Source of the DNA: a bacterium
GTDB taxonomy: Bacteria > BMS3Abin14
Length of the DNA: 46,745 nucleotides
Direction: 5' to 3'
Assembly (NCBI GenBank): GCA_041559575.1
Contig: JBFFDD010000001.1
Coordinates: 1 to 46,745, forward strand
Shown: positions 12,604 through 24,493 of the stretch, one piece after another
Layout of the letters: each line of letters opens with the position of its first letter
How positions within the stretch are numbered: the stretch's first letter is position 1
Position numbers and translations under genes: made by a program
The notes under the pieces: model-generated
What the model saw: the letters and a program-made list of their open reading frames with translations, nothing else
Database searches by the model: none
What the model was told of the DNA's origin: nothing

Positions 12604-12652
12604 TTGACAAGGGTTGTCCTGGAATAAATCGGAACAACCTGTGGTATATAGA

Positions 12653-13243
12653 ATGACAGGAGGACCTTTGACCGGACAAAGTGACGAGATATTGGCCGCC
12701 GGAGCGGCGGCCGGCGACCTTGAGGCCTTCGAGGAACTGGTCAACCGGCACAGGATGTCCGTTTACCGATTGGCACGTTCCATTACGGGCAATCACGACG
12801 ACGCGGATGACGCGGCCCAGGAGGCCTTCTTTCGCCTCTATCGTTCGCTGTCCTCCTACGATCCCCAGCGGCCCTTCACTCCCTACCTGAGGCGCATTGC
12901 CTATAACACCAGCCTCAACGTCCTCAGGGCAGGCAGGGCCAGGGGGAGGGGAGTCACCGTGAGCGAGATGCCCGACGCTGCGGACCTGTCCCCCAATCCC
13001 TACGAGGCTGCGGAGACAAAGGCTATGGGGAAGCATTTTCAGGTGGCCCTGGAACAACTATCCGCCGAGTTAAGGGGCACTTTTCTTCTCAGGGCCTCCG
13101 AGGGCATGTCCTACAGTGAAATCGCTCAGGCGACAGGGGTCAGGATTGGCACGGTGATGTCCCGGCTGTCCAGGGCGCGGGAGAGGATCCTCAAGACCGT
13201 TCAGGCCGCCGGGATGATCTCCCAGAGAGGTGATGGACAATGA
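12653..13243 (+). CDS. ECF-type RNA polymerase sigma-70 factor
   Basis: Region 2 (GDLEAFEELVNRHRMSVYRLARSITGNHDDADDAAQEAFFRLY) and region 4 HTH (MSYSEIAQATGVRIGTVMSRLSRARE). The start is uncertain, either TTG 12614 or ATG 12653. Confidence 0.85.
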   Translation: MTGGPLTGQSDEILAAGAAAGDLEAFEELVNRHRMSVYRLARSITGNHDDADDAAQEAFFRLYRSLSSYDPQRPFTPYLRRIAYNTSLNVLRAGRARGRGVTVSEMPDAADLSPNPYEAAETKAMGKHFQVALEQLSAELRGTFLLRASEGMSYSEIAQATGVRIGTVMSRLSRARERILKTVQAAGMISQRGDGQ

Positions 13244-14667
13244 ATTGCGGTAAAGCCAGGAAATGGATGATGGCTTTCCACGATGGTGAGCTTTCGGTTT
13301 CCAGGTCCGCCAGGGTCAGGGACCATCTGTCAGCCTGCAGCCAATGTACTGCGATTCTTGAGGAACTGGAAATGGTGGACGGGACCGTCCAGGTGACCGA
13401 ACCGGCGCCTGAGTACTGGGACTCTTTCACGGGGAGGGTGATGAATCGGATCAGGGCTGACCAAAGAACCGCTGAAGAGGGTGCAAGGGAAAAGATCCTT
13501 CATCAGTGGCGCCCCCTGTGGAGGTTGGCACCGGCGATCTCCATAGTATTCGTGGCCGTCGTTGCTGTGGGGGTATTCTTCGAGATGAAAAGACCGGTTG
13601 AACTGCCCACGGAGATGGCTCCCATGACGAAAACCGTGGGCAAGACGGTCAGAAGAGAGGCCCCCGCCGTCGGGGAGGAAGTATATGAGAATTCAGCCAC
13701 AGCGGACGACGCAGTCGATGACAGGGACGGATACCTGGAGGCCGTTAAGGGGAAAGAAGATGGCAGGAGAGATGATTCCGCTGCCATCCAGGAACCGAAA
13801 GCGATTGAAGGGGGGTTCGACATTCCGGCGGCCCGGGAGCAGGTCGCACCGCCTCCATCAGAGTTGCCGAGGAGGACCGGGGAGGTCGCAGTCCGTCCGG
13901 AAGGAGGAGAGCACAGGACGGCTCGGTTTGCCACCGAGAAGATGACAGCAGGGGCCCAGAAGGATCTCCAGGAATCACCCGAACGGGAGTCCACCGGGCC
14001 GGCGGCTCTGAAAGCACCGGAAGCAGGAGTTCGTTCCTATTTTCAGCCTGAGGCCGGCCGGGAAACTTCGTATCCTCCGGCGGAGATGCCCCCTTCGGGC
14101 CCTGGCACTGAATTTGAAGGATTCCAGTCCCGTTTCAGTACCCCGTCATTCTCACAGGTGGCCATGCTGGAGGGAAATGTCCTCACATCGCGCGATCTTT
14201 CCGACGGGGTCAGGGCCTATCTCAGTGACCGGTTTCAGGGAAGAAAGTACACTGTTCTTTATAATGAGGACCTCAACCGGGACGGGATCGTAGAGGTCGT
14301 CGCGGTGATTCCCGCCGATGGCGGCCGGGCGGTGGACGCGATCTCCGATCCGGAGGATCAGCAGGCATTCTCAGGGATGGTGGCCTTCGGTGAAGGTGTG
14401 GTCGTCCAGGAGATCTCGGGAAGGGTCGTGGAACAGGTTATCGTCAGGAACGACCGGGCGGAGGATGGAGCGGGTCTTGCCGTCACCGCAGCGGACCTCG
14501 CCGGCTGGACCATCCGACCCATGGGCGGTCCCGACGGGAGAGGCCTGACCTTAAACAGCATCAAGGTGTCGGGGGATGTTTCCGCGGACCAGGCAGTCCG
14601 GTGGGACGACGTGAAGGCGACCTATATGCTGATGAAGGAGCCGATGCCAGCAATTAAGGGGCAGTGA
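13240..14667 (+). CDS. Anti-sigma factor (zf-HC2 type) with one TM segment and a long extracytoplasmic domain
   Basis: ATGA overlap with the sigma gene. The HLSACSQC motif lies in the first 40 aa. One TM segment (APAISIVFVAVVAVGVFF). The following region is low-complexity and acidic. Confidence 0.75.
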   Translation: MNCGKARKWMMAFHDGELSVSRSARVRDHLSACSQCTAILEELEMVDGTVQVTEPAPEYWDSFTGRVMNRIRADQRTAEEGAREKILHQWRPLWRLAPAISIVFVAVVAVGVFFEMKRPVELPTEMAPMTKTVGKTVRREAPAVGEEVYENSATADDAVDDRDGYLEAVKGKEDGRRDDSAAIQEPKAIEGGFDIPAAREQVAPPPSELPRRTGEVAVRPEGGEHRTARFATEKMTAGAQKDLQESPERESTGPAALKAPEAGVRSYFQPEAGRETSYPPAEMPPSGPGTEFEGFQSRFSTPSFSQVAMLEGNVLTSRDLSDGVRAYLSDRFQGRKYTVLYNEDLNRDGIVEVVAVIPADGGRAVDAISDPEDQQAFSGMVAFGEGVVVQEISGRVVEQVIVRNDRAEDGAGLAVTAADLAGWTIRPMGGPDGRGLTLNSIKVSGDVSADQAVRWDDVKATYMLMKEPMPAIKGQ

Positions 14668-14785: not shown

Positions 14786-15604
14786 TTATTCTTTCTCACC
14801 TTTCTCCGGCATCTCATTGATCAGTTTCAGAAGGTCTTCCGCTTTCCGGTAGCCAGGCGCCAGCCGGCCGTCGGGAAGGACGACGATAGGAGTGGAGCTG
14901 ATCCCCAGTTGACGGGCGAGGGCCATAGTCCGATCCACAGCGTCGGTGTCGCAGGTCGGGTCCGGTACCGGCTGGTCGGCGAAACTCGACTCGAGCAGTT
15001 CCAGGGAGTCCTCACAGACGATGCTCTTGGAGATCCTGTAGGCGTCAGGGTGAAGTTTCACCAGCGGCAGGAGCTTGATGTAGAAGACCAGGTCCGGATC
15101 CATCACCACCGCCCTCTTCAATTCCGGATGAAGCTTCGCGCAGTAGGGGCACTGGGGATCGGTGAACACGAATGCTTTCTTTCGGCCCTTGGGGTTACCC
15201 AGAACAAGGGCGTCCTGAATGGGAATGGTTGTGAGGTCCACCCGACGGAGGTTCATCAGTTTTTTCCTGGTGATGTTCTCCCGGTCGGCGATGTGGATGA
15301 CGTTACCGGAGATGACGTAGTTCTCCGAGAAGTCGATGTACAGGATGTGTTTATTCCCCTTGCTGGTGACCTCCACCGAGTACAGACCGGGTACCTGGGA
15401 GAAATCAACGTTATCGACGCTGTCCAATCCCGGCAGGTCCTTGAGGAGTTCAACCGCGGTCTCCTTCTCCATTCCGTGGCAGTCCCGGCACTGGCCCTCC
15501 CCACAGCCCTCGGCTCCGAAGGGGACAGCACGGTCGGGAAGCGCAAGGATCCCCGAAATGGAAAGGGTGATTATCAATATGGAAAAAACGATTATCTTCC
15601 GCAC
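14786..15604 (-). CDS. DsbC/DsbG-family thiol:disulfide interchange protein
   Basis: Signal peptide, a DsbC-like N-terminal domain, and a thioredoxin fold with FTDPQCPYCAKLH. An extra C-x4-C-x2-C-H cluster lies near the N-terminus. Confidence 0.85.
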   Translation of the reverse strand: MRKIIVFSILIITLSISGILALPDRAVPFGAEGCGEGQCRDCHGMEKETAVELLKDLPGLDSVDNVDFSQVPGLYSVEVTSKGNKHILYIDFSENYVISGNVIHIADRENITRKKLMNLRRVDLTTIPIQDALVLGNPKGRKKAFVFTDPQCPYCAKLHPELKRAVVMDPDLVFYIKLLPLVKLHPDAYRISKSIVCEDSLELLESSFADQPVPDPTCDTDAVDRTMALARQLGISSTPIVVLPDGRLAPGYRKAEDLLKLINEMPEKGEKE

Positions 15605-15870: not shown

Positions 15871-16716
15871 CTATTTTCCTTTCTTTAACTCCTCGTCTAT
15901 CATCCGTGAGAAACCTTCCAGGCTTCGATCGGATAAACGTCTGCCGTTGACGAAGATGGTCGGCGTTCCACGGACACCGCTCTGCTGTCCCTGCCTCATG
16001 TCACGGTTGATCAGATCGTTGATCTCCCGGCTATTTCTGTCGGCCTCGAAACGCTTCATGTCCAGGTTTAGGTCACCTGCGATCTGTTCGATGAGCTGTT
16101 CGTTGATCTTATTGTAGTTCTCAAAAAGCCGGTCATGGAACTCCCAGTATTTCCCCTGCTTGCCGGCAGCCATGGCGGCAGCGGCGGCAGGCCTGGCGAA
16201 CTTGTGGCTTCTTATGGGGAAATGGAGCTCAACGATCCTTATGTCTTTGGGGTATTTCTCGAGCACCTGCTCGAGTAGAGGCACCAGCCTCGCGCAGTAT
16301 GGTCACTGAAAGTCACTGAAGTAGGCGATCTCAACGGGGGCGTTTTTAGGGCCCTTGGACGGGGATCCCGATGTATCAAAGGTGTGAATCAGATCCAGGG
16401 CGACGATGAGGACATCCCTGCCGCTGCCTCCGGAAAGGATCAGCCTGGTCCCCACCTCGGAGAACTCCACCCTTTCGTAATCCCCGCCGGTTTCAATAGT
16501 CTGAACCTGTTGTCCGTTCCAGCTCAGGACCCTGATGACTCCACCGGTGGTGAGGACAAAGGTCCACTTGCCGTCCTGGGACACGGCTGTATCCAGGGCT
16601 TTGGAGCCAACATCGATCTTCTGGGTCGCTCTGAGCTCGAAAGCGGCGAAGGCAGGGGCGTTCAGGAAGGACGCGGCGACCAGGAAGAGGATCAACCGGG
16701 AAATGGGTTTTGCCAT
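15871..16716 (-). CDS. DsbA-family thiol:disulfide oxidoreductase, predicted selenoprotein (in-frame UGA at 16303-16305, active site U-P-Y-C)
   Basis: Two same-frame ORFs are joined by one TGA: ..VEIAYFSDFQ-TGA-PYCARLVPLLEQ.. The downstream half is a canonical DsbA fold (QGKYWEFHDRLF, GVRGTPTIFVNGR). AGGAGG lies 6 nt before the ATG at 16716. Signal peptide ..APAFA. Confidence 0.8.
16258..16291 (-). promoter_or_regulatory. Candidate SECIS hairpins downstream of the UGA
   Basis: On the mRNA, GAGGC-UGGU-GCCUC starts 11 nt after the UGA. It is followed by CUCGAG-CAGGUG-CUCGAG. These were identified by eye only. Confidence 0.45.
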
Positions 16717-17093
16717 GGTAAGCCTCCTTGATCTCCCCGGGTACATAAATTACCCGATATTGGGATAGGATACAATCTCTAAAATTTGTCTGTGGAGAAC
16801 GGCAGGGGATTGAAATTACTGTGGGATCAAGGGGGAATCAGGACCTATAGGTTCCCGGGCTGGAGATTTCGGCATGGGTGACGGGATCCTCGACCTGTGA
16901 CGAAACTGGATGGGTAACACTGGGGGTAATTTCATCGGCTCCTTCCCGAAAACGGTTTGATAAATGAACCGATAAAAGATCACCCCCCCTCGGGGCCCCC
17001 GGCTCCCCATGACCGGTGTGGGGTTGTTCAGCCGAAACAGGGATATAACATCCCGGCAATATGCCAGGGAAGCGGGGGAGGACTATTCAGTCC

Positions 17094-17846
17094 TCAACTC
17101 CCCACCTGCCTTACTGCACGGTCTCCCGAATATCCTCCAAATATCTGTCGATACGGTCCCGAAGGTGCAGGCCTGAACTCAGAAGCCGGACGCCTGATCC
17201 GACCGGGCCGCCCCTGCCCGGAGAGCCGTTCCAGACAACGGCACCGGATCGGATAGTCCTGAAGGTATCCTCTCCGGGCAGGGTGAAGCGGATCTCGATG
17301 ACCTTGCCTGGTATGGGATGTTCCGGGAGTTCCATAAAGGCCCCTTCGGCGGAGAGGAAGCGGATGTGTGTTGATCTCCTGGCCGTAGAGAATAACCCTG
17401 CACGGAAGATCGACGGAGGTTCTCCTCCAGCGCCGGATGGAGATGCCCAGGCGCTGCCCCACCATGGAGAGGAGGCTGGCCCTCCTGATCGGTTTGTGTA
17501 TCAGACCATCGCATCCCGCCGAGATGCAATCGGAGTTTTTATGGTCCGAGGCACCGGAGCTGACAATGATGACCGGAATCGATCGAGTTCGGAAATCCTC
17601 CTTGAGCAGCCGGCAGACGTTTTCCCCGTTCACGTCCGGCATGTGAAGATCGAGGAGAATGAGGTCAGGAGAAACCGATCGGGCTTTTTCGAGGGCTTCC
17701 GTTCCCGTCCTCGCCCCGTGGATCTCGAATCTGGACTGCCCCAGGCGGGCGATCTGCAGTTGAATAAAAAGCCCCATATCATAGACGATCAGCAACCTTT
17801 TTCTATCCCCCCTCAGGTGAAGGTTGCCCACTATGCCACGGGGCAT
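17094..17846 (-). CDS. Response regulator receiver domain plus PilZ domain, with an apparent frameshift near 17364-17372
   Basis: Receiver domain (LLIVYD..DLILLDLHMPDVNG..IPVIIVS..KP). PilZ starts in this frame with RRWRRTSVDLPCRV. It continues in another frame (ORF 17111..17335): HIRFLSAEGAFMELPEHPIPGKVIEIRFTLPG.. Confidence 0.7.
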   Translation of the reverse strand: MPRGIVGNLHLRGDRKRLLIVYDMGLFIQLQIARLGQSRFEIHGARTGTEALEKARSVSPDLILLDLHMPDVNGENVCRLLKEDFRTRSIPVIIVSSGASDHKNSDCISAGCDGLIHKPIRRASLLSMVGQRLGISIRRWRRTSVDLPCRVILYGQEINTHPLPLRRRGLYGTPGTSHTRQGHRDPLHPARRGYLQDYPIRCRCLERLSGQGRPGRIRRPASEFRPAPSGPYRQIFGGYSGDRAVRQVGS

Positions 17847-23287: not shown

Positions 23288-24493
23288 ATGGCAGTAGTAG
23301 TCATCAAGGATATGTGCAACGGATGCGAGGCATGTCTCGATTCCTGTCCCTACGAGGCCATCGAGATGGTCGACGGGCTCGCCTATATCAATGAGGCGTG
23401 CACCATGTGTATGGCCTGCCTGGAAGCATGTCCCCTGGAGGCCATCATCAGTGAGGAGACGGAAACGGTTCTGCCCGACCTGGACAAGGACGCCTACTCC
23501 GGGGTGTGGGTCTTTGCTGAGCAGCGGCAGGGGAATGTTTCCACAGTGGTGATGGAGCTCCTCGGCGCAGGGCGGAAGTTGGCCGACGACCTCGGAGAGA
23601 GGCTGACGGCCATCCTCCTCGGACACGATATGGAGTCGGCGGCACGGGACCTTGTCCACCACGGTGCCGACGAGGTCGTTTATGTTGACGACCCTCTTCT
23701 GGCCAACTTCAATGACGGCCCTTACGCTTCGGTCCTGTCCGACCTGATCAGGGAGAGAAAGCCGTCCATCGTCCTGGCCGGCGCAACCTTCATGGGGAGA
23801 TCCTTCATTCCCATGGTCGCATCGAAGGTGGACACGGGGTTAACAGCCGACTGCACATCCCTGGCCATTGATCCGGAAACGCGTGACCTTCTCCAGACTC
23901 GCCCCGCCTTTGGCGGCAACATCATGGCCACCATTATCTGCCCCCGTCACCGGCCTCAAATGGCCACTGTCAGGCACAAGGTTCTCTCCCCCGCAGTGGA
24001 GGACATCCATCACAAAGGTGAGGTCCACATTATCCAGGGTTTCGACGGCACCCGGCTGGATCAGCGGACGGAGGTCCTCGAGGTGGTCGAAGAGGTCATG
24101 GACACCGTTAACCTCGCAGAGGCCGACATCATCGTGTCCGGAGGGCGGGGAGTGGGGAGCCCGGATGGTTTCAAACTCATCGAGGAACTGGCCCTCGAAC
24201 TGGGAGGAGCGGTGGGCGCTTCACGGTCGGTGGTGGACTCGGGGTGGATACCCTATTCGCACCAGGTTGGTCAGACGGGCAAGACGGTCCAGCCCAAAAT
24301 CTACATCGCCTGCGGGATCTCGGGGGCTGTCCAGCACCTTGCCGGAATGCAGGCTTCAGATGTTATCATCGCCATCAACAAGGACGGCGACGCACCCATT
24401 TTCGACGTGGCCAATTACGGTCTGGTGGGAGACCTGTTCGAGATCATTCCGCAGATCATTCAATCAGTAAGGAGCAAGAGGGCCGTGTCATGA
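23288..24493 (+). CDS. etfA: Electron transfer flavoprotein alpha subunit with an N-terminal 2x[4Fe-4S] ferredoxin domain
   Basis: [12 protein letters not shown] and [12 protein letters not shown], followed by the EtfA body ([19 protein letters not shown]). Confidence 0.9.

Follow-up and report, generated by a model that had tools for sequence, protein, structure and literature searches.

The stretch of DNA analysed here, referred to as the window, comprises 46,745 nucleotides of a bacterial contig (GTDB lineage Bacteria; BMS3Abin14; GenBank assembly GCA_041559575.1, contig JBFFDD010000001.1, positions 1 to 46,745). On its minus strand, at 16716..15871, it very probably carries a single gene for an exported thiol-disulfide oxidoreductase of 281 residues, whose first redox residue would be selenocysteine (Sec) in the active site U138-P-Y-C141. 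A first-pass annotation, made by a model from the letters of the DNA, had proposed a DsbA-family selenoprotein that the listing of open reading frames (ORFs) splits in two. Direct reading bears this out: the minus-strand ORFs 16303..16746 and 15871..16284 have a common frame, whose sole interruption is the TGA at 16305..16303, and the read-through junction is ..VEIAYFSDFQ-[TGA]-PYCARLVPLLEQ.., a DsbA active site with the TGA, as the alignment of homologs confirms, at the nucleophilic Cys. DsbA-like proteins with a UxxC motif are a kind of bacterial selenoprotein known since 2005, and the gene of the window is a well-supported further case, possibly from an undescribed subfamily.

The gene, its homologs and the TGA codon

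The start codon of the gene is likely the ATG at 16716..16714, since a Shine-Dalgarno sequence lies 6 nt upstream (Table 1) and the homologs start at the corresponding MAKP position; for the alternative upstream ATG at 16746 no Shine-Dalgarno sequence is present in the window. The end coordinate of the first-pass annotation, 16716, agrees with this start.

A protein homolog search covering 5.8 billion proteins returned 854 homologs at E < 1e-10, of which the best 120 were listed. Most of these 120, at about 280 amino acids, align with 90-100% of the read-through protein, so that the two halves are normally one polypeptide and belong together, and do not correspond to a pair of separate genes. 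Nearly all of the listed homologs contain the motif [STDN][DE]FQ-C-PYC. In alignments of 22 and of 100 sequences the UGA falls in a column that is otherwise invariably Cys (C138), and this is where over 100 full-length homologs have the first Cys of the motif, so that in the comparison with Cys-containing DsbA homologs, which had been suggested as a check, the TGA lands exactly on the nucleophilic Cys of [ST]DFQ-C-PYC. Furthermore, P252 is invariant and T251 nearly so among the 100 aligned sequences; P252 is presumably in the cis geometry that is familiar from this protein family.

For six of the 120 listed homologs (P0010, P0028, P0038, P0055, P0080 and P0100) a Trp is stored at the redox position. 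The DNA of three of them (P0010, P0028 and P0038, on five contigs) was inspected, and all five contigs have TGA at the redox codon. The stored Trp is a gene-calling artefact produced under a code with TGA as Trp, since the loci carry TGA and fail to give the stored protein under translation table 11.

The locus has been assembled independently twice more from the same organism, in NCBI GCA_041548505.1 (99.65% identity to the window) and in Logan SRR22412864 (99.85%); both assemblies keep the TGA, and neither of them has the TGC or TGT that a sequencing error would have concealed. Between the GCA_041548505.1 strain and the gene of the window there are eight nucleotide differences, all of them 3' of the TGA and all synonymous. 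In addition, the exact 137-residue downstream ORF is on record in seven contigs, and none of the residues that are invariant in the family has been lost from the downstream half. As a separate observation, the eight synonymous differences are clustered within 25 nt (window 15925-15949, gene positions 768-792, codons 256-264), a pattern suggestive of a short patch of recombination or gene conversion.

In order to follow the codon across species, the GTDB species representatives (one genome per species) were scanned with the family alignment; 80 loci were listed, none of them above 48% identity, and the redox codon was read in each. Among those listed, 27 loci are full-length, all of them from Desulfobacterota or a 'delta proteobacterium', and they divide into 15 with TGA (L006, L008, L011, L013, L014, L016, L019, L020, L022, L024, L025, L029, L030, L032 and L036) and 12 with TGC or TGT. 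One of the TGA loci, L022, belongs to an isolate, Desulfopila sp. IMCC35006. More distant TGA forms were found in metagenome-assembled genomes (MAGs) of a Myxococcota (L042) and a Terriglobia (L057) member, and altogether the redox codon is TGA in at least 17 species-representative genomes and five metagenome contigs. The active site varies among the TGA loci (UPYC, UAYC, UKYC, ULYC, UPHC, URYC and UPFC), with UVYC as a further variant in the database homolog P0055. Sec forms are interspersed with Cys forms; at least 13 Sec/Cys changes are required by parsimony on a rough neighbor-joining tree, which has no branch support and is drawn from a sample biased towards Cys forms.

The Desulfobulbales-type loci share a further feature that is absent from the window: a tRNA-Leu(TAG) that precedes the DsbA-like gene and is encoded on the other strand (L020, L022, L024, L025, L030, L032, L017, L018, L021 and L026-L028). 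It lies about 0.4-0.9 kb away (about 2.5 kb in L026), in Sec and Cys forms alike.

The public annotation is wrong for the gene of the window and for many of its orthologs, which are recorded either as split ORFs or with Trp at the catalytic position. In the split records there are two ORFs of about 137 residues, the downstream fragment (124-137 residues) being labelled 'protein-disulfide isomerase', whereas the Trp records read FQWPYC and similar. The mis-annotated records are L087:975-1820 (the GCA_041548505.1 locus), P0010, P0028, P0038, P0055, P0080, P0100 and P0127-P0130. No curated selenoprotein model of NCBIfam reaches its cut-off for this family, and with a model built for this family an exported selenoprotein that is widespread in the Desulfobacterota would be recovered. 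The species representatives listed also provide a neat natural series of 15 Sec and 12 Cys forms, in which it can be asked why selenium is selected in the thiol-disulfide chemistry of the anaerobe envelope. Current understanding is not overturned by the gene; its value lies chiefly in annotation and in the comparison of Sec/Cys exchange.

Table 1. Positions of the gene, of its coding and RNA features and of the neighbouring oxidoreductase gene in the window.
Feature	Position	Strand	Remarks
Predicted selenoprotein gene, complete	15871..16716	-	281 codons and TAG stop, Sec at codon 138; full-length homologs, Pfam domains over the TGA
Shine-Dalgarno AAGGAGG	16723..16729	-	6 nt 5' of ATG 16716; read from sequence
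Predicted Sec-type (export) signal peptide MAKPISRLILFLVAASFLNAPAFA	16645..16716	-	AxA cleavage motif, no lipobox Cys; inferred from sequence
All-beta N-domain, two-blade YVTN/WD40-type beta-propeller-like	16375..16629	-	residues about 30-114; family-profile match, AlphaFold2 model of P0001
DsbA-like thioredoxin-fold domain with helical insertion (Thioredoxin_4/DSBA)	15892..16368	-	residues 117-275
UGA, predicted selenocysteine U138	16303..16305	-	first residue of U-P-Y-C; pairs with invariant Cys column; recurrent TGA
TGC, resolving Cys141 of UxxC	16294..16296	-	column invariant in alignments
Hairpin 1, GAGGC-UGGU-GCCUC	16278..16291	-	nt 15-28 from U of UGA, starts 11 nt after UGA
Hairpin 2, CUCGAGC-AGGU-GCUCGAG	16258..16275	-	nt 31-48 from U of UGA; best candidate selenocysteine insertion sequence; encodes L-E-Q-V-L-E
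G-T-P-T loop, presumed cis-Pro252 loop of thioredoxin fold	15958..15969	-	alignment of 100 sequences
DsbC-like gene (DsbC_N and Thioredoxin_2, CPYC)	14786..15604	-	downstream neighbour; Pfam; not conserved beside homologs

RNA hairpins downstream of the UGA

RNA folding located both hairpins at the positions given for them by the first-pass annotation (Table 1). For the comparison of RNA structures 19 Desulfobacterota-type Sec sequences were set against 12 Cys orthologs of the same clade. Every one of the 19 Sec forms has two adjacent hairpins directly after the UGA, and none of the 12 Cys orthologs has them. The mean folding energy of the hairpin-1 zone is -8.8 kcal/mol in the Sec forms versus -2.4 kcal/mol in the Cys forms (Mann-Whitney p = 1e-5), that of the hairpin-2 zone -10.3 versus -1.5 kcal/mol (Mann-Whitney U = 0, p = 2e-6) and that of nt 4-54 as a whole -19.0 versus -9.0 kcal/mol (U = 0, p = 2e-6).

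Hairpin 2 is near-invariant in sequence; over the 19 Sec forms 95.5% of it is paired, and four of its seven pairs show compensatory changes. The pair swaps are G-C to C-G (L002 and L008), C-G to U-A (L013) and G-C to A-U (L025); the outermost pair, 31-48, changes from C-G to U-A in two sequences. Neither the pairing percentage nor the covariation score was reached by any of 500 shuffles, and sliding of the 3' partners lowers the pairing to 31-50%. At the level of the encoded peptide the Cys orthologs relax L-E-Q-V-L-E to LDQM, VDEV, LDDI and similar, so that the RNA of hairpin 2 seems to constrain the protein sequence in the Sec forms; the family would serve as an example of mRNA structure acting on protein sequence.

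Hairpin 1 behaves differently: its 3' arm is fixed at nt 24-28 and its 5' arm covaries with it, yielding the arm pairs GAGGC/GCCUC, GCGGC/GCCGC, CAGGC/GCCUG, CGGGC/GUCCG, GAAGC/GCUUC and GUGGC/GCCAC. The per-sequence analysis places the 5' arm about 4 nt further upstream in one subgroup, and a single shared register fits just 58% of the cells.

Both hairpins were measured against published rules for bacterial selenocysteine insertion sequences (bSECIS), namely a loop of 3-9 nt, a stem of 4-16 bp, a G in the first two loop positions, a spacing of 16-37 nt from the UGA and a minimum free energy (MFE) of at most -7.5 kcal/mol (PMC13188914). In the window both comply: hairpin 2 has 7 bp, an AGGU loop, a spacing of 34 nt and an MFE of -10.7 kcal/mol, and hairpin 1 has 5 bp, a UGGU loop, a spacing of 16 nt and an MFE of -7.7 kcal/mol. 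Over the family, hairpin 2 passes in 18 of the 19 Sec forms and in none of the 12 Cys forms, while hairpin 1 passes in the window sequence only. Because of this distribution hairpin 2 is put forward as the family-wide SECIS candidate, with hairpin 1 as a second Sec-specific helix. The earlier claim that the placement is compatible with a SECIS therefore stands and gains from the confinement of the hairpins to TGA forms, but it has to be refined in that hairpin 2, and not hairpin 1, fits the bSECIS rules family-wide.

In the two distant TGA forms, Terriglobia L057:10067-10140 (UPFC) and Myxococcota L042:10739-10810 (UPYC), the two-hairpin layout is absent, and a single hairpin with the loop sequence GGUC(C) at nt 22-26 after the UGA occupies the hairpin-1 position. 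The same protein position has acquired or kept differing SECIS architectures in these two loci and in the Desulfobacterota. The single hairpin of L057 and L042 is reminiscent of Escherichia coli fdhF, whose minimal element starts 11 nt after the UGA, as hairpin 1 does. With the E. coli fdhF SECIS and the bSECIS consensus (PMC13188914, Fig. 2A) the structures of the window share the location in the coding region after the UGA, a G followed by G or U in a small apical loop, and spacing and MFE within the above limits; they differ in that fdhF has one long hairpin, whereas the Desulfobacterota forms have two short adjacent ones and match nothing in Rfam. A permissive Rfam search of 16150..16400 detected no SECIS family, only a chance match to a small RNA with E = 4.

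A scan of the fetched loci for TGA-joined open frames followed by a hairpin obeying the bSECIS rules gave 416 candidates, the great majority of them noise that stems from GC-rich frames. Among these, a GVGU-like candidate in L011, was dropped because its translation is an implausible peptide.

Domain architecture and known relatives

The N-terminus of the predicted protein reads MAKPISRLILFLVAASFLNAPAFA, followed after the cleavage site by A, and equivalent hydrophobic N-termini are found in the homologs. For the structure, an AlphaFold2 model of the 55%-identical Cys homolog P0001, calculated from a 99-sequence alignment, stands in for the protein of the window (predicted local distance difference test, pLDDT, 92.4). 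In this model the signal-peptide region is a low-confidence N-terminal helix. After it come seven or eight strands, which make up the N-domain (residues about 40-121, pLDDT above 90), and then the thioredoxin fold, in which the helices H173-244 are inserted between beta3 and beta4. U138-P-Y-C141 opens the helix that matches H138-153 of the model. A profile of the family, searched against PDB, hits the YVTN beta-propeller of 1l0q with E = 2.8e-15 in a stretch equivalent to about two blades (positions 30-114); WD40 proteins are hit as well. Such a two-blade propeller fragment is an unusual appendage on a DsbA domain; it suggests that a propeller may be assembled via oligomerisation.

With Cys at position 138, two Pfam families span the TGA, Thioredoxin_4 (PF13462; 6.1e-25, 88.8 bits, cut-off 23.2) and DSBA (PF01323; 1e-22, 81.3 bits, cut-off 25.6). 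The fold search with the C-domain returned 3gyk, BdbD (3eu3), ScsC, TsdA, alpha-DsbA2 and P. aeruginosa DsbA2 with target-normalised template modelling (TM) scores of 0.65-0.80. BdbD, ScsC (4xvw, 5idr, 6nen), TsdA (7unn), Wolbachia alpha-DsbA2 (6eez) and 3gyk share with the window protein the DsbA fold with a helical insertion (TM in the same range, 22-27% identity, profile E down to 2.7e-28). They differ in having a Cys active site and helical-stalk N-terminal modules, and their functions are copper resistance, isomerase and oxidase. In ScsC and alpha-DsbA2 an N-terminal oligomerisation module is added to the DsbA domain. The DsbA identity assigned by the first-pass annotation is thus upheld by the fold and by Pfam DSBA, with the refinement that the nearest class is BdbD/ScsC/TsdA (Thioredoxin_4) and not E. 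coli DsbA proper. Membership in E. coli-type DsbA (NF008198, 22.3 bits versus a cut-off of 279) and DsbG (NF008657, 23.2 bits versus 124) was considered and rejected.

UxxC 'DsbA-like' and 'DsbG-like' selenoproteins were first described in 2005 from the Sargasso Sea (PMC1088965). Later lists name Anaeromyxobacter dehalogenans, Desulfovibrio desulfuricans and Desulfotomaculum reducens as carriers (PMC1794560), as well as the Olavius delta-1 symbiont (PMC1976440), and these selenoproteins are covered in a 2026 review (PMC13188914). Evidently, Sec/Cys exchange in DsbA-like proteins, to which the first-pass annotation had appealed, is documented, and this in Deltaproteobacteria. Compared by the published descriptions, the protein of the window resembles DsbA-like selenoprotein form 1 (Zhang, Fomenko & Gladyshev 2005; Zhang et al. 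2006/2007) in its UxxC motif, its thioredoxin-fold DsbA family (PF01323), the SECIS hairpin just downstream, the occurrence in Deltaproteobacteria and the widespread Cys homologs. It differs in that the Sargasso family was assigned to COG2761, whereas the window protein scores best with PF13462 and with BdbD/ScsC-type structures and possesses in addition a signal peptide and an N-domain of about 85 residues with two blades. The best NCBIfam match (1.6e-21) is NF041057, the Rcas_1661 family thioredoxin-like (seleno)lipoprotein ('DsbG-like'), which likewise is exported and has UxxC; only the C-terminal domain is aligned. The protein is not a member of that family, since its 77 bits stay below the cut-off of 190 and its signal peptide is devoid of a lipobox Cys. 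Taken by its profile matches, the protein falls into the broad DsbA/Thioredoxin_4 superfamily, outside all curated equivalog families.

Readings of the UGA and the surrounding genes

In the mechanism that we propose, the UGA at 16305..16303 would be read by Sec-tRNA(Sec), delivered by SelB-GTP that is recruited to the mRNA structure just downstream. Hairpin 2 (7 bp, AGGU loop) would act as the SECIS, and hairpin 1 (UGGU loop) might assist by spacing or presentation or might itself bind SelB. The product would be exported via the Sec translocon and its signal peptide cleaved. In the periplasm, the selenolate of U138 in the BdbD/ScsC-type DsbA domain would attack substrate disulfides and be resolved by C141, with selenenylsulfide intermediates to C141 or to substrates; the catalytic direction could be that of a reductase or isomerase, or that of an oxidase. 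The two-blade N-domain would probably serve oligomerisation or partner binding, by analogy with the N-terminal modules of ScsC, DsbC and alpha-DsbA2.

Several observations weigh against selenocysteine at this codon. P0001, the closest homolog among the matches listed, has Cys at position 138. No tRNA-Sec was found in the window or in 29 related loci, and neither selA nor selB nor selD in the window (Pfam on ten further ORFs) or in the flanks of the related loci. Folded alone, the 81-nt stretch of the window is unremarkable (z = -1.34, 19 of 200 shuffles as good), and the Rfam search of the whole window gave nothing above the gathering thresholds. Since shuffles fold equally well, the single sequence is insufficient to prove a SECIS; it is the comparison with homologs that lifts the hairpins far above chance. 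This comparison of Sec and Cys forms is not phylogenetically independent, though the Sec forms are scattered in the tree. Furthermore, either hairpin 2 or hairpin 1 may be the one that binds SelB, and the literature search revealed no experimental selenium incorporation for this subfamily and nothing uniting selenocysteine, DsbA, periplasmic and Desulfobacter*.

Among the other explanations, it is very unlikely that the UGA is a true stop, the products then being a 137-residue N-terminal beta-domain protein and possibly a C-terminal fragment from the GTG at 16284. Both ORFs are open, and termination at the UGA under selenium limitation would yield exactly the truncated product. However, the fragment from GTG 16284 would lack CxxC, the first strand of the thioredoxin fold and a Shine-Dalgarno sequence, the homologs are single polypeptides, and this reading offers no role for conserved hairpins that occur only in TGA forms.

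Recoding of the UGA via the hairpins by the same machinery, but with Cys partly or mainly inserted, for example under selenium scarcity, is in line with all comparative data, as half of the orthologs function with Cys. We nevertheless regard it as highly improbable: a costly UGA together with its SECIS is kept in at least 17 species although one base change would lead to TGC or TGT, which suggests that Sec itself is selected.

The possibility that the locus is a DsbA-like pseudogene, its TGA having arisen by nonsense mutation or by a mistake in assembly or sequencing, appears to us exceedingly remote. The Cys of P0001 and the division of the locus into two ORFs by gene callers speak for it. 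It is opposed by the recurrence of TGA at the same codon in two more assemblies, in at least 17 other species-level genomes and in five metagenome contigs, by the purely synonymous strain differences 3' of the TGA, by the intact invariant residues of the downstream half and by the restriction of the hairpins to Sec forms. A reassigned code with TGA as Trp or Gly, to which the six homologs stored with Trp might point, can be dismissed almost entirely, because TGA ends 15 of the 44 long ORFs of the window as an ordinary stop and no second plausible in-frame TGA occurs in its coding frames; moreover, Trp is not credible at the otherwise invariant nucleophilic Cys of CxxC, and the stored Trp is a gene-caller artefact.

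Beyond the selenocysteine assignment itself, a wider interpretation is conceivable, which we hold only tentatively and with considerable doubt. According to it, the present subfamily would constitute a distinct, undescribed selenoprotein family of the Desulfobacterota (signal peptide, two-blade propeller, BdbD/ScsC-type DsbA domain and UxxC). Its SECIS would be bipartite and need both hairpins, the RNA of hairpin 2 would fix L-E-Q-V-L-E, the propeller would be oligomeric and the protein would reduce or isomerise disulfides in the periplasm in a selenium-dependent manner. The ancestral state in this family would be Sec, with repeated losses to Cys; at least 13 Sec/Cys changes are implied by the rough tree, and the hairpins of the scattered Sec lineages look homologous to one another.

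The neighbouring DsbC-like gene (Table 1) indeed uses CPYC, as had been noted earlier. The neighbours in the window (DsbC-like, ECF sigma/anti-sigma, response regulator, YceD, L32, PlsX and FabH) do not stand beside the homologs in the related loci; because of this missing synteny no operon is inferred and the DsbC-like gene cannot be called a conserved partner. At 12614-14667 on the plus strand, an extracytoplasmic function (ECF)-type sigma factor (Sigma70_r2/r4) and a 475-residue zf-HC2 anti-sigma protein are encoded tail-to-tail with the DsbC-like and DsbA-like genes. The ECF sigma pair could place both oxidoreductases under envelope-stress control; the arrangement is not conserved near the homologs.

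On the other side, at 17094-17846 on the minus strand, lies an ORF of 250 residues of which only residues 19-129 form a response-regulator receiver domain. Its C-terminal 120 residues are rich in Arg, Gly and Pro, have no domain match and are overlapped by an opposite-strand ORF of 265 residues, so that the true end of this gene is uncertain. In the ten further window ORFs Pfam identified sulfatase, acyl-CoA dehydrogenase, electron transfer flavoprotein (ETF), LysS, FtsX/MacB, LpxB, DegT, OmpA and response regulator. The remainder of the window, 17913-46642, is of housekeeping character (YceD-like, rpmF, plsX, fabH, acyl-CoA dehydrogenase, OmpA-family, LysS, FtsX/MacB-type permease, LpxB and DegT aminotransferase). 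Within it, at 23288-24493, an ETF alpha subunit carries an N-terminal 2x[4Fe-4S] ferredoxin domain; this ferredoxin-fused ETF and the taxonomy of the homologs fit an anaerobic Desulfobacterota genome.

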